Shown here: piece by piece, positions 167 to 4,781 of the stretch
How the letters are laid out: each line of letters opens with the position of its first letter
Numbering within the stretch: the first letter of the stretch is position 1
Assembly (NCBI GenBank): GCA_964510585.1
Contig: CAZECW010000014.1
Coordinates: 1 to 5,268, forward strand
Length of the DNA: 5,268 nt
Direction: 5' to 3'
From: an uncultured archaeon
Lineage (GTDB): Archaea > Asgardarchaeota > Jordiarchaeia > Jordiarchaeales > Jordiarchaeaceae
The notes under the pieces: model-generated
Seen by the model: the letters and a program-made list of their open reading frames with translations, nothing else
The model's database searches: none
Told to the model about the DNA's origin: nothing
Translations under genes and position numbers: made by a program

Positions 167-598
167 CTAAACTGTACTTTTGAGATATGTTTTTATTCCG
201 TTGACCACAAACTTGGCGTCTTCAATGACTATTATGGCCTTTTCTCTCGTGTAATAGTCCATGGGGGTCACCCATTTACCAGCCAGCTTTAGGGGATACC
301 GTGTGTAGACGACTTCTCTCTGTATGTTTTTTCCTTTTTCAATCAATTGTAAGTACTTGTTTTCTCTTAATAATTCTGGTTTTGTTTTCCTCAGAACCGC
401 AGCTAAGCCGCTGATTGCTCGGTGATTTTTCGCTTCGTTGCCACCGAGTTTGAGGATCATTGCGTTCGCCGCGCTTTCAACAGCCATCGAAGAGTGGAAG
501 ACTGCAGCGTCATACTCTCCAGTCTCGAAGCGTTTTTCCGCCCTCAAAAGATTCACCTCGGCAATCTTCAATAACACATTTACCTTACTCTCAACCAT
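167..598 (-). CDS. HEPN domain protein, putative toxin partner of the adjacent MNT
   Basis: 143 aa with the HEPN N-terminal helices (A..NL.RAEKRFETGEYDAAVFHSSMAVESAANA), a KNH loop histidine (H59) and a TRYP motif (R100, Y101). It overlaps the MNT stop by 19 nt. Confidence 0.88.
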   Translation of the reverse strand: MVESKVNVLLKIAEVNLLRAEKRFETGEYDAAVFHSSMAVESAANAMILKLGGNEAKNHRAISGLAAVLRKTKPELLRENKYLQLIEKGKNIQREVVYTRYPLKLAGKWVTPMDYYTREKAIIVIEDAKFVVNGIKTYLKSTV

Positions 599-1212
599 AT
601 TCCCTCTTCCACCAAGTAATCATGGCTAGACTTAATCTGCTCAACCCTATCGTGTAATATCTTACCAATCTTTCCGGTTTTATCAATTAAGACTTCGTAG
701 CCCTCTGCGATGCCGTAAATGATTCCACCTTCATATGAGTAAATATTATCTAAGAAATCTTCTTCCGTGAGGATAAGTGGCTCGATGGGTATGTGGTACT
801 TATATTCTAACATCGAAATTTTTAGCATGGTTCCTTTTTTCGTCACATTGTATGGTTCACTGACAACAATTATTATGTCTAAATCGCTGTTTTCACAAGC
901 GTTTCTCTGAGCCACACTGCCGAAGAGAATTACCGCCTTCACAAATGGTAAATTTGCAACTATACATGCTATTCGCTTAGCTTGAGAAATCATATATAAA
1001 CTGAGTTCATAGGTAGAAATGGGAATTTCTTTTCTTAAACTGTACCACCTGCCACTCTTCTCTAAAACTCCCTTTTCTTTTAATTCTCCAAGTTTAATGG
1101 CCAGCCACCTATCACTCAACTCAGTTTCCTCCTTTAATTCACTGTAAGTATGTTTACCATGCTTTAAAGTCAACACAATTCGACCCTCAGAAGTTAAGGA
1201 AACCAAATCCAC
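580..1212 (-). CDS. winged-HTH fused minimal nucleotidyltransferase (MNT), putative antitoxin
   Basis: Residues ~1-60 look like a wHTH (TYSELKEETELSDRWLAIKLGELKEKGVLEKSGRWYSL). The rest carries VILFGS-X10-DLD (G98, S99, D110, D112) and a third acidic residue, E144. The GTG start lies 8 nt from a strong SD (AAAGGAGGT, 1229..1221). Confidence 0.9.
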   Translation of the reverse strand: MDLVSLTSEGRIVLTLKHGKHTYSELKEETELSDRWLAIKLGELKEKGVLEKSGRWYSLRKEIPISTYELSLYMISQAKRIACIVANLPFVKAVILFGSVAQRNACENSDLDIIIVVSEPYNVTKKGTMLKISMLEYKYHIPIEPLILTEEDFLDNIYSYEGGIIYGIAEGYEVLIDKTGKIGKILHDRVEQIKSSHDYLVEEGIWLRVR

Positions 1213-1611: not shown

Positions 1612-1626
1612 GGGAAGGTTTATAAA
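1612..1626 (+). promoter_or_regulatory. BRE + TATA promoter of the HEPN-MNT operon, leaderless geometry
   Basis: Purine-rich GGGAAGG is followed by TTTATAAA (1619-1626). The ATG lies 22 nt downstream with no SD in between. Confidence 0.75.
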
Positions 1627-1648: not shown

Positions 1649-2023
1649 ATGGGAGGCGTTTCTATCCACGCGAAAATTGCCGAGGAAAGTTTTATGGGGG
1701 CTGTCGATGAACTTGAAAAAGGGAGATACTCGAATGTCGGTCTTCTATGTCTGAGGGCTTTAGAGCAGATGATTGAGGCTTGTGTCTCCAAGGAGGAGCT
1801 GCACTTTCATGAGAACCCGAGAACCGCACATAAGAATCGTCGCGATTGGCTTAGGAAGCATCACCCGGACCTAACGCTGTACTGGGATCAGCTTTGGGGA
1901 ATATATGGAGCTTTGGGTTATGGAGGCATAGATGGTGGAAGAGCCAAACAGGCTCTGGAAATTCTTAGGTTGTGTCTGAGAGAGTTGGGTAGGAGGGAGA
2001 GTGTTGCAATTGGGGGTCTATGA
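1649..2023 (+). CDS. HEPN-like protein (divergent), putative toxin
   Basis: 124 aa, all-helical pattern with a HEPN-type N-terminus (AEESFMGAVDELEKGRYSNVGLLCLRALEQMIEA), a TAH histidine (H61) and an LGYGG tyrosine (Y91). It overlaps the downstream MNT by 23 nt. Confidence 0.75.
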   Translation: MGGVSIHAKIAEESFMGAVDELEKGRYSNVGLLCLRALEQMIEACVSKEELHFHENPRTAHKNRRDWLRKHHPDLTLYWDQLWGIYGALGYGGIDGGRAKQALEILRLCLRELGRRESVAIGGL

Positions 2024-2582
2024 GGAAGTTTTGCGTGTTGTCAACCGGATGAAAAATGTTGAGGGAATTGTGGGTTTGTTTCTTTATGGGAGTTTCGCGC
2101 GGGGGGATTATGATGAGGGTAGTGATGTGGATCTTCTCGTAATCTTTAAGGATGGGAGAACACTCAGGGAGGGATTGGAAAAGATTTATGGAGTAACAGC
2201 TGAGACGGACCTTTTCATCCAAGCGGTAGTATTGACACTGGACGAGTTTAGAAATTCACCATTGTTCAAGACTGTGCTTCGAGAGGGGAAAGTATTTTAT
2301 GCTGGGCCTGAGTTTGGGTGGATTCTTAATCATGTGTTTAAACCGTACACGCTTATAACGTATAGTACTTCGAATCTGGGTAAGAGCGAGAGGGTGTTGT
2401 TTGCTCAGGAGATGAGAGGGAGGCGGACTGGCAAATATGTATATCAGGGGCTTCTAAAGGAGTGTGGTGGTTTCAAGGTGGGGAGGGGTGTTGTGATGGC
2501 CCCATTGGAGAACCTAGAGAAAATAAAAGGTTACCTTGAGAAGAGAAAAATTGACTACACGCTTAGATATGTTTGGATCTAA
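2001..2582 (+). CDS. minimal nucleotidyltransferase with an additional C-terminal ferredoxin-like domain
   Basis: LFLYGS-X10-DVD (G30, S31, D42, D44); the MNT core ends near VLREGKVFY (~aa 100). Residues ~113-193 form an extra domain. SD AGGAGG at 1991-1996; the start may be GTG 2001 or TTG 2004. Confidence 0.9.
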   Translation: MLQLGVYEEVLRVVNRMKNVEGIVGLFLYGSFARGDYDEGSDVDLLVIFKDGRTLREGLEKIYGVTAETDLFIQAVVLTLDEFRNSPLFKTVLREGKVFYAGPEFGWILNHVFKPYTLITYSTSNLGKSERVLFAQEMRGRRTGKYVYQGLLKECGGFKVGRGVVMAPLENLEKIKGYLEKRKIDYTLRYVWI

Positions 2583-2591: not shown

Positions 2592-3008
2592 TCACTCGAT
2601 GTATACTAAATTTACGCCTATCTTTTTTGCTACTTTCCCCTGTGTTTTATCACTTGTGATTAACCTGGCGGTCAGAGCCTTTGCCTGTGCCAGAAATAGA
2701 CTGTCATAAATGGGGATGTTATACTCTATGGAAATTTTTAAAGCCTTCTTGAGGTATTTCTTGCTTGGTTCTAAAATTATTACTTCCTCATCTGCAATTT
2801 TTATCATGTACTCGTAGAGCTCGAGAGCCTGTTCTACTGTTATTAACCTGTATTTTTCAACGTATTTCCATATTGCATTAGTTCCTTCTAGGATAAGCAT
2901 GTCTACTGCGTGGGGTTTTAAGCTTGGATTTAGGTAGGGAACTAGTTTTTCCCAGTTTTCTTCTTTCACTAAAAATTTTGAAAGGGCTGAAGAGTCAATG
3001 ACTATCAC
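2592..3008 (-). CDS. vapC: PIN-domain ribonuclease toxin (VapC family)
   Basis: 138 aa with an intact PIN acidic tetrad: D5 (IVIDSS), E41, D102 (IYDSLF) and D120 (LITSD). The GTG start overlaps the antitoxin stop by 14 nt. Confidence 0.93.
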   Translation of the reverse strand: MIVIDSSALSKFLVKEENWEKLVPYLNPSLKPHAVDMLILEGTNAIWKYVEKYRLITVEQALELYEYMIKIADEEVIILEPSKKYLKKALKISIEYNIPIYDSLFLAQAKALTARLITSDKTQGKVAKKIGVNLVYIE

Positions 3009-3234
3009 GGTCTTCTCTCACCAGTTTTTGTGCGGTTCCTTTTGGTGCCGCTGGGAGGCTTTGTATATAAGCTACAGCTTCCTGCAGGACTTTTCTTTTC
3101 TTATATTCCTCGATTTTACTTTTTATGAATTCCCTTATTTCCTCGCTCCAGTTAATCTTGTCCTTCAATTTATCCATTTCGTTTTTAATTTCTGGCGGGA
3201 TGCGAATGCTGAAAACACTCAAGTAATTCACCAA
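2995..3234 (-). CDS. vapB: ribbon-helix-helix (CopG-like) antitoxin, VapB family
   Basis: 79 aa with an RHH strand and helices (VFSIRIPPEIKNEMDKL..INWSEEIREFI), directly upstream of the PIN gene. The start is uncertain: TTG 3234, GTG 3231, or TTG 3222 (5 nt after a GGTGA SD). Confidence 0.88.
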   Translation of the reverse strand: MVNYLSVFSIRIPPEIKNEMDKLKDKINWSEEIREFIKSKIEEYKKRKVLQEAVAYIQSLPAAPKGTAQKLVREDRDSH

Positions 3235-3728: not shown

Positions 3729-4781
3729 TCACAGGGTGAATGTTACGTAGTATAGCCATTTTTCTAGGAAGGTGAGTATTGCTAGTGGTATTTGGGCTAT
3801 TAGGGGAATTAGGGCTTTCAATGTGCTGGTTTTTTTGGAGGGGTTGAATGTGTATAGTGTGAGGCTGGGATAGTTGATGGTGATTTCCATGGTTTTTGCC
3901 AGTTCTTGGACGTCGCCTAGTTTTTTGTCGATTTCGCCGAGGTGTTTTAGTATGTCTTGGGGTTTCTTTTCTTTTATTGCTTTTAGGAGATTGGTGGTGA
4001 TGGTTTTGGCTTTGTTTAGGGGTTCTTTTTCGTTTTGTAGGAGGGCTAGATATAGTGTGGTTAGGGGAGGTTCTAGGTTGAATTCTTCTAGTTCTCTTAT
4101 GGTTTTTGATAGGGCGTGGTTTAGTAGGATGTATAGCATGAAGTGTAGTTGTTCTATTTTTTTGATGTCTTCTTTTGTGTATCCTTCTTTTATGCTGTTT
4201 ATTATGTTTAGGCAGGCTTGGCTTAGTGTTTCCTCACTGTCAAGCAGTGGTTGGATAAGGTATAGTATTCCAAGGGCGGAGATTAACATTATGGCTATTC
4301 TCTTTAGTGTTAGGAATATTGTGGCGTATTGTTGGAGCATGTTGTACCATATTAGTATTGTTAGGGCTGCGAGTGCGATTAGGACTAGGTACTGTAGGAT
4401 TAGGGCGGTTGAAGCGATTTTCTTGCTGCTCCTCCACTTCTGGATTATTTTTGTGCTGTTCGTTTCCTCCTGGGATTCTTTTAGGATGATTCTGGTTAGG
4501 GTTTGGGAGATTTTTATGCAAACTAGTGCCGAAGCAAATAGTACAGCAGTGAAAATTAGCGCTTTGACTGCGAATTCCCTTAGAAATATTATGTTCTGAT
4601 TTATGAAGAATGAGTACCACTTCCCATCGTAGGGATTGTAGGCGAGTGTCCACAGAAAGTGGGGATAAAATGCATAGTTGGTTGCAGGATAGAATAATAT
4701 GAATGCAACTATAAGCGCAAATAGACTCGCATATTTTGGCTCCTCTGCGAATCTCCTGAGGAAGGAGGATATTGGATGCAT
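3729..4781 (-). CDS. hypothetical multi-pass membrane protein
   Basis: 350-aa ORF with hydrophobic segments at about aa 18-32, 74-89, 123-146, 162-177 and 323-339. A charged helical region spans ~180-320. A BRE/TATA lies at leaderless distance. No family recognised. Confidence 0.75.
   Translation of the reverse strand: MHPISSFLRRFAEEPKYASLFALIVAFILFYPATNYAFYPHFLWTLAYNPYDGKWYSFFINQNIIFLREFAVKALIFTAVLFASALVCIKISQTLTRIILKESQEETNSTKIIQKWRSSKKIASTALILQYLVLIALAALTILIWYNMLQQYATIFLTLKRIAIMLISALGILYLIQPLLDSEETLSQACLNIINSIKEGYTKEDIKKIEQLHFMLYILLNHALSKTIRELEEFNLEPPLTTLYLALLQNEKEPLNKAKTITTNLLKAIKEKKPQDILKHLGEIDKKLGDVQELAKTMEITINYPSLTLYTFNPSKKTSTLKALIPLIAQIPLAILTFLEKWLYYVTFTL

Follow-up and report, generated by a model that had tools for sequence, protein, structure and literature searches.

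An Asgard archaeal HEPN/MNT-type gene pair whose nucleotidyltransferase carries a candidate operator-binding ferredoxin-like domain

What might a minimal nucleotidyltransferase (MNT) of a toxin–antitoxin-like gene pair use an additional C-terminal domain for? The question is raised by two overlapping genes on contig CAZECW010000014.1, a complete short contig of 5268 bases from an Asgard archaeal genome (assembly GCA_964510585.1), which was analysed over its whole length and is referred to as the window. The first gene (1649–2023, plus strand) encodes a 124-residue protein of the HEPN fold, a putative toxin or substrate-binding subunit referred to below as the partner. The second (2001–2582, plus strand, GTG start) encodes a 193-residue protein in which an MNT domain is followed by a C-terminal domain (CTD). 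Few mobile two-gene modules are as abundant in archaea as HEPN/MNT pairs. We give a somewhat better than even chance to the reading that this pair is a mobile, self-contained operon resembling type VII toxin–antitoxin systems, in which the CTD is the operator-binding, autorepressing part and Tyr91 of the partner is nucleotidylated. The data on which this reading rests are the fold, the strict pairing of the genes, the conservation and uniqueness of the operator, the predicted MNT–HEPN interface and the co-occurrence of the CTD with GTTAA half-sites; DNA binding, repression, nucleotidylation and toxicity of the partner are what we infer from them.

The MNT core is complete, as had been noted in the original prediction made from the DNA letters. 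Pfam matches to the NTP_transf_2/Polbeta families span residues 15–100 of the 193-residue protein (PF01909, 42.3 bits with a cut-off of 21; PF18765, 39.8 bits with a cut-off of 26.9), and the GSx10DxD signature, G30-S31-x10-D42-x-D44 (codons at 2088–2093 and 2124–2132, plus strand), does not vary across 20 homologues. Judged from its sequence, the MNT is apparently active. In the AlphaFold2 model of the protein (mean pLDDT, the predicted local distance difference test score, 86.9), the α/β fold of the MNT domain (residues 1–112; 2001–2336, plus strand) is present up to about residue 112. The roughly 80 extra residues and the segments quoted for them are likewise present, and the β–α–β–β–α–β pattern proposed for them is matched by the model. 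The CTD (residues 115–193; 2343–2579, plus strand) begins with a strand (115–122), a helix (128–139) and a small two-stranded hairpin (140–149), followed by strands 158–161 and 164–168, a helix (169–181) and a final strand (185–192); this is the order of a ferredoxin-like fold with one inserted hairpin (RRTGKYVYQG). The basic RRTGKYVY hairpin sits in an insert of variable length which is missing from many family members, and the RGRRTGKY loop, to which a nucleic-acid-binding role had been ascribed, therefore cannot be the core of CTD function. By contrast, the proposal that the domain as a whole binds nucleic acid remains the best reading and can be narrowed by comparative evidence to sequence-specific binding of operator DNA.

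The candidate operator lies in the promoter of the pair. A putative TATA box, TTTATAAA (1619–1626, plus strand), is located about 27 nt 5' of the ATG at 1649, so that the transcript would be leaderless or nearly so; a TTTATA-type element aligns at the equivalent place in related loci. Between the TATA box and the ATG there is a perfect 19-bp palindrome, TTTGTTAAT-T-ATTAACAAA (1628–1646), whose 9-bp arms were reached in none of 500 shuffles and whose core, GTTAATNATTAAC (1631–1643), has a single occurrence in the 3.78-Mb genome, at the module. In loci of the main family, which span several phyla and were drawn from metagenome contigs as well as from genomes of Asgard archaea and Thermoproteota, the palindrome is found at the same place, at times with one or two changes, and the DNA further upstream of it cannot be aligned. 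In distant subfamilies this place is taken by different palindromes of like geometry, e.g. TTTTCATAT-A-ATATGAAAA and TTCTTAT-T-ATAAGAA, and a Thermoproteales locus has a palindrome with 14-bp arms at the operator position. Furthermore, one Thermoproteota genome (G315) encodes three HEPN-like/MNT–CTD modules (L218, L239 and L240) with three operator classes, the promoter palindromes being TTTCTTAT-T-ATAAGAAA, TTGTTAAT-T-ATTAACAA and TTATTT-GA-AAATAA, which suggests that paralogous modules may be autoregulated orthogonally. Because the position of the palindrome is kept, its flanks diverge and the palindromes differ between subfamilies, the operator is most readily understood as being recognised by one of the module's own proteins. 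The core GTTAATNATTAAC also matches exactly the consensus for HNF1, a homeodomain factor of vertebrates, which we take as coincidence; a literature search with the operator sequence returned vertebrate HNF1 sites only.

The two genes overlap by 23 nt, and a GGAGG Shine–Dalgarno-like element (1992–1996, plus strand) lies within the partner gene, 4 nt 5' of the GTG of the MNT–CTD gene; the overlapping arrangement is kept in related loci. The 193-residue protein has about 39 close-homologue clusters, nearly all of 192–193 residues, and hundreds of distant homologues, in agreement with the earlier expectation that the fusion was uncharacterised rather than unseen. For the partner there are at least 165 homologue clusters with 63–94% identity, and close homologues of both proteins occur in Jordarchaeaceae, Njordarchaeota, Bathyarchaeia and Nitrososphaerota. 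The survey of homologues bears out a consistent pairing with the HEPN-fold protein: in all loci examined (the first 26 scored together and those found afterwards), the partner gene comes first and the MNT–CTD gene second, overlapping or directly adjacent. Exceptions concern completeness, the contig ending inside the MNT gene in two loci and frameshifts being present in two. The paired loci belong to Jordarchaeaceae, other Asgard archaea, Bathyarchaeia, Nitrososphaerales and Thermoproteales and have otherwise unrelated neighbourhoods, as expected of a mobile module. The source genome has one partner gene only; it also has a second, diverged MNT–CTD gene of 210 codons on contig C163 (L007:1480–2112, minus strand) without a partner beside it. 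In four Thermoproteota loci (L225, L228, L230 and L232), the partner frame seems to run into the MNT–CTD frame, a partner-like HFH...PRSAH being directly upstream in another frame or fused; these arrangements are possibly fusions, frameshifts or assembly errors.

The partner had been called a HEPN protein, which holds for its fold. Its model (pLDDT 91.8) displays a four-helix up-down core in which helices 2 and 3 are separated by an insert, a HEPN bundle on which Foldseek agrees, and sub-threshold matches to PF05168 (best E 0.0038) come from 4 of 25 homologues. However, neither Pfam (to E 1) nor NCBIfam recognizes a family in the 124-residue protein of the window, and the hhalign probability of the partner profile against the HEPN protein of module 1, a neighbouring pair on the same contig, is 2%. 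The family signature consists of HFHxxPRTAHxxRRxW and LWxxYGxLGYGGxxGxRA, and residues H7, E13, E39, Q40, E43, H52, F53, H54, H61, W67, Y86, Y91, G92, G93 and R98 are invariant in 22 partners with identity down to 45%. Compared with classical HEPN proteins of the PF05168, COG2250 type (AF_0298, 2hsb; ST0689, 1wol; TT1696, 1ufb), the partner falls below the Pfam threshold and has its own invariant set (HFH, PRTAH, LGYGG). The Rx4-6H motif of HEPN proteins is located at the end of core helix 3 (PMC3710099), where the partner lacks it and reads Y86-GALG-Y91-GG. It also lacks RX4HXY, the sole analogue being the invariant Tyr91, which lies in a Gly-rich loop at the equivalent place. R64/R65...H71/H72 was considered as the HEPN catalytic motif and rejected, being located in the insert helix and losing its His in distant subfamilies. 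Since the motif is missing at its canonical place and His71/His72 are not conserved distantly, an RNase or toxin nature is not to be assumed; the partner is a HEPN-fold protein with a non-canonical conserved site.

A complex of the two proteins is predicted with an ipSAE interface score of 0.77, the best control reaching 0.24. The mark thus passed is reached by 58 of 80 complexes of solved structure and by 2 of 110 mismatched pairs; HEPN–MNT complexes, however, have already been solved and are in the PDB, so that the pass may partly reflect likeness to known structures. Contacts agree between runs to at least 96%, and the pLDDT of the partner is at least 89. The predicted interface comprises residues 38–42 of the MNT, the loop ending in the catalytic D42, together with residues 60–88, and residues 58–69 and 76–93 of the partner, including the invariant Tyr91-Gly-Gly; it includes no residue of the CTD. 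By its invariance and its predicted position in this interface, Tyr91 (codon 1919–1921, plus strand), in the loop LGYGG between core helices 3 and 4, is a candidate nucleotidylation acceptor. The predicted complex is consistent with tyrosine nucleotidylation as in type VII systems, which it does not demonstrate.

The same complex could belong to a two-subunit nucleotidyltransferase rather than to a toxin–antitoxin system. The HEPN-fold protein would then be the substrate-binding subunit, as in HI0073/HI0074 and in the C-terminal domain of kanamycin nucleotidyltransferase, the target would be a small molecule, RNA or another protein, and the CTD would still autoregulate the operon or recruit the enzyme. 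We regard this as unlikely. The distribution of the pair is patchy and mobile, and in the window it is clustered with a winged helix-turn-helix (wHTH)–MNT/HEPN pair and a VapBC pair; tight gene coupling and an apparently autoregulated promoter are typical of toxin–antitoxin modules. Moreover, on the same Bathyarchaeia contigs the partner is 65–72% and the MNT–CTD protein 53–55% identical to the respective window protein, and a better-conserved partner fits a toxin, toxins commonly outlasting antitoxins in conservation. Finally, an invariant Tyr loop predicted to lie in the interface beside the MNT catalytic loop is what type VII systems display.

If the pair is a type VII-like operon, is it the CTD that reads the operator? 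Genes that encode the CTD without the rest of the module bear on this. The stand-alone CTD gene of locus L055, which encodes 79 residues in a frame open for only 87 codons and has neither an MNT nor a HEPN partner, is preceded by GTTAATGATTAAC at -54 and GTTAATTATTAAC at -16. Upstream of each of two tandem-CTD genes (L061 and L213; 265 and 257 residues, 43% identical) lie two copies of GTTAA[T/A]GTAGTTAAC, identical 15-mers of which the second is located just before the start. A further CTD gene of 114 codons, also without MNT and HEPN (L057), has ATTAATTATTAAC upstream. Among 4597 control windows of 120 nt, only 6 contain two GTTAA/TTAAC half-sites 3–4 nt apart; the pattern (GTTAA, gap 3–4) was fixed after the cases had been seen, which makes the enrichment figure optimistic. 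Proteins encoded next to these CTD genes vary and have no match in common. Since nothing but the CTD is shared between these genes and the module, it is the most economical candidate for the DNA reader. Module 1, in which the MNT is joined to a wHTH instead, is in keeping with this view.

Two further features of these loci may be mentioned here. The half-sites of the tandem-CTD genes (L061:2400–2500 and L213:600–720) may also be taken as direct repeats with a spacing of 9 bp, an arrangement that would fit a chain with two domains. In addition, the CTD genes of L055, L061 and L213 are overlapped by downstream genes encoding 397, 288 and >173 residues without a Pfam match (L055:2733–3926, L061:3291–4157 and L213:1482–2000), and these pairs may be further two-gene modules with the CTD as regulator or antitoxin.

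Alternatively, the CTD might be a regulatory domain of the ACT/RAM kind that controls the MNT through oligomerisation or by sensing a ligand, the palindrome being bound by another factor. However, CTD-only genes, one of which encodes 79 residues and has no room for a second domain, carry GTTAA promoter repeats, and they share no other protein with the module; besides, the uniqueness of the operator in the genome makes a general host factor on the palindrome unlikely. We consider this alternative decidedly improbable.

The CTD represents a large family. A profile search among 1.84 billion proteins yielded 609 representatives with E ≤ 0.001, which puts the family at no fewer than 609 clusters at 50% identity, from Asgard, Thermoproteota, DPANN-like and methanogen-related lineages. 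Among the genomes sampled, 63 of 301 from Asgard archaea and 22 of 351 from Thermoproteota encode the domain. Two glycines are kept in the family consensus, together with Y-x-L...K-x-x-F-x-x-x-L-x-G-R...G-L-L...G-x-K-L-G-x-G-x-x-x-V-P. According to Pfam, an MNT domain precedes the CTD in 77 of the 139 top profile matches; other architectures among them include stand-alone proteins of 67–135 residues, proteins with two copies (P0216 and P0227), a wHTH–MNT–CTD protein (P0181) and fusions to other enzymes, namely, a glycosyltransferase (P0274) and NucS_C–MNT–CTD (P0287). A single Asgard genus also has proteins of about 190 residues in which an N-terminal CTD is joined to an uncharacterised 100-residue extension (L199, L202–L206, L208, L210 and L211), and their genes have conserved upstream palindromes of a different type, TTCATTAA-AA-TTAATGAA and TTCATTGAA-TTCAATGAA.

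The label of a Cas2/PaaX-like domain, under which the original prediction had placed the CTD, fares less well than the ferredoxin-like fold itself. The CTD shares with Cas2, VapD, PaaX_M and ChrB_N the topology and a similar size; it differs from them in having an extra hairpin insert and in lacking significant sequence or profile similarity and the catalytic acid. Indeed, the expected absence of the Cas2-type acid extends across homologues: Tyr121 is followed by Ser122 in the window protein and by S, T, N, D, E or K among relatives, whereas Cas2 proteins of the same phylum, Asgard archaea, keep YD at the end of strand 1. Structural neighbours were taken from whole-model searches, which report ranges, and from an Atlas search with the CTD part. 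Atlas matches with template modelling (TM) scores of 0.81–0.89 are the same kinds of archaeal clusters, named only for their nucleotidyltransferase part; the part-search gave a TM score of 0.57 to a ChrB_N/PaaX_M cluster, and in the whole-model search Cas2 ranks no higher for the CTD than unrelated ferredoxin-like folds. At the profile level, when a CTD profile built from 146 sequences was compared by hhalign with 25 Cas2 proteins of Asgard archaea, the probability was 7.6% over 11 columns, in strand 1 only. Pfam found no match in six isolated CTDs even at E 10 and, for the domain across 139 family members, nothing beyond faint matches to Propep_M14 in 8 of them and to PaaX_M in 2; NCBIfam gave only noise on 23 stand-alone CTDs, as did, apart from MNT matches, PDB sequence searches with the full protein, the CTD profile and a broad CTD profile. 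PaaX_M in 151 Asgard genomes gave one spurious sub-threshold match, to an HTH–CBS protein. With these results, kinship of the CTD with the Cas2-like clan is unproven and the fold class alone is confirmed; it is very unlikely that the CTD is a genuine member of the Cas2/VapD/PaaX clan, possibly a degenerate nuclease, with a role in binding or sensing the ends of RNA or DNA. The label is better replaced by that of an undescribed ferredoxin-like domain family, probably operator-binding. Tentatively, and at slightly less than even confidence, we propose that the CTD defines a new, widespread archaeal family of sequence-specific DNA-binding domains, used in stand-alone repressors with inverted GTTAA half-sites, in tandem proteins with half-sites repeated 9 bp apart and in the MNT-fused module, with specificities that diversify to the point that paralogous modules of a genome have orthogonal operators.

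Several observations weigh against an operator-binding CTD and a type VII-like pair. The ferredoxin-like fold of the CTD is not among the classical DNA-binding folds. Besides the half-site pattern having been defined post hoc, the independent CTD-only families that carry the motif number two or three, and neither the stand-alone gene L214 nor the second paralogue of the source genome has a GTTAA half-site pair. The wHTH–MNT–CTD protein P0181 bears both a wHTH and a CTD, which would be odd if the CTD alone binds DNA. A metagenome scan for the 14-mer TGTTAATNATTAACA placed 4 of the 80 listed matches upstream of the known module, the others looking like chance AT-rich sequence, and revealed no new CTD architecture among these 80. 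As to the partner, Tyr86-x4-Tyr91 takes the place of the canonical Rx4-6H, and His71/His72 are lost in distant subfamilies.

In the type VII-like, autorepressed operon that we favour, the HEPN-fold gene would be the first on a leaderless mRNA made at the TATA promoter, and the MNT gene would be translationally coupled to it through the 23-nt overlap and the internal GGAGG. The catalytic face of the MNT is predicted to hold the partner, which the MNT would probably neutralise or regulate by nucleotidylating the loop Tyr91. The CTD, which makes no contact with the partner in the predicted complex, may dimerise and recognise the GTTAA(T) half-sites that stand inverted in the 19-bp palindrome; bound between the TATA box and the start codon, it would repress the operon. 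The CTD would thus take the role that wHTH, ribbon-helix-helix (RHH) or AbrB domains have in other antitoxins.

How does such a module relate to known systems? PaaX and ChrB are transcription regulators. To our knowledge, type VII antitoxins described so far have no DNA-binding domain. These HepT/MntA systems include Shewanella SO_3165/3166 and the Aphanizomenon and Legionella HEPN–MNT pairs and act through tyrosine nucleotidylation (PMC7641770, PMC11586414). Similarly, MNT–HEPN pairs have been described as lacking a DNA-binding component, which was suggested to be supplied in trans (Makarova et al. 2009, PMC2701414). As in HepT/MntA, adjacency of the HEPN and MNT genes is conserved in the module, but the gene order is reversed, the partner has neither RX4HXY nor a Pfam HEPN/DUF86 match, and the MNT has the extra 80-residue domain and is accompanied by a conserved palindromic operator. 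Overall, the system departs from known HEPN/MNT pairs by its reversed order, its non-canonical HEPN partner and its built-in candidate autorepressor domain.

The remainder of the window provides a context of similar genes. According to open reading frames and Pfam, it contains three toxin–antitoxin-like pairs and one membrane protein gene, and its closest relatives, with which synteny is shared, are metagenome-assembled genomes of Jordarchaeaceae. Module 1 consists of a wHTH–MNT gene (580–1212, minus strand), the upstream member of the pair, and a downstream HEPN gene with a PF05168 match (167–598, minus strand), the two overlapping by 19 nt; that the HEPN gene comes first in the module under study, the reverse of this order, had been recognized correctly. 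At its N-terminus, the MNT of module 1 carries a winged-helix domain that is HxlR/HVO_A0261_N-like, with a weak ORF80-family match, and shows, on the same contig, another way of joining a DNA-binding domain to an MNT. Common to this protein, to RHH, AbrB and HTH antitoxins and to the proposed function of the module under study is the fusion of a neutralising component to a domain that would bind the module's own promoter; in contrast to the wHTH–MNT, the proposed DNA-binding domain is C-terminal and ferredoxin-like and belongs to no described DNA-binding family. The VapBC pair comprises a PIN gene (2592–3008, minus strand) overlapping a small RHH-type gene of 79 codons (2995–3234, minus strand), whose Jordarchaeaceae orthologue is called RHH_12. 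A gene for a 350-residue membrane protein follows at 3729–4781, and the VapBC pair and this gene are syntenic with a Jordarchaeaceae relative (L001).

Transcriptional control of HEPN/MNT pairs is a standing question, to which the module would show one solution, a small domain on the MNT that reads a promoter palindrome. If the CTD indeed binds DNA, a function is gained for several hundred archaeal proteins now called hypothetical, and a new protein–DNA recognition fold, with operators that are simple and portable, would become open to study and to use in genetic tools for archaea. The partner, a strongly conserved HEPN fold without the RNase motif, is a test case for non-canonical HEPN proteins.
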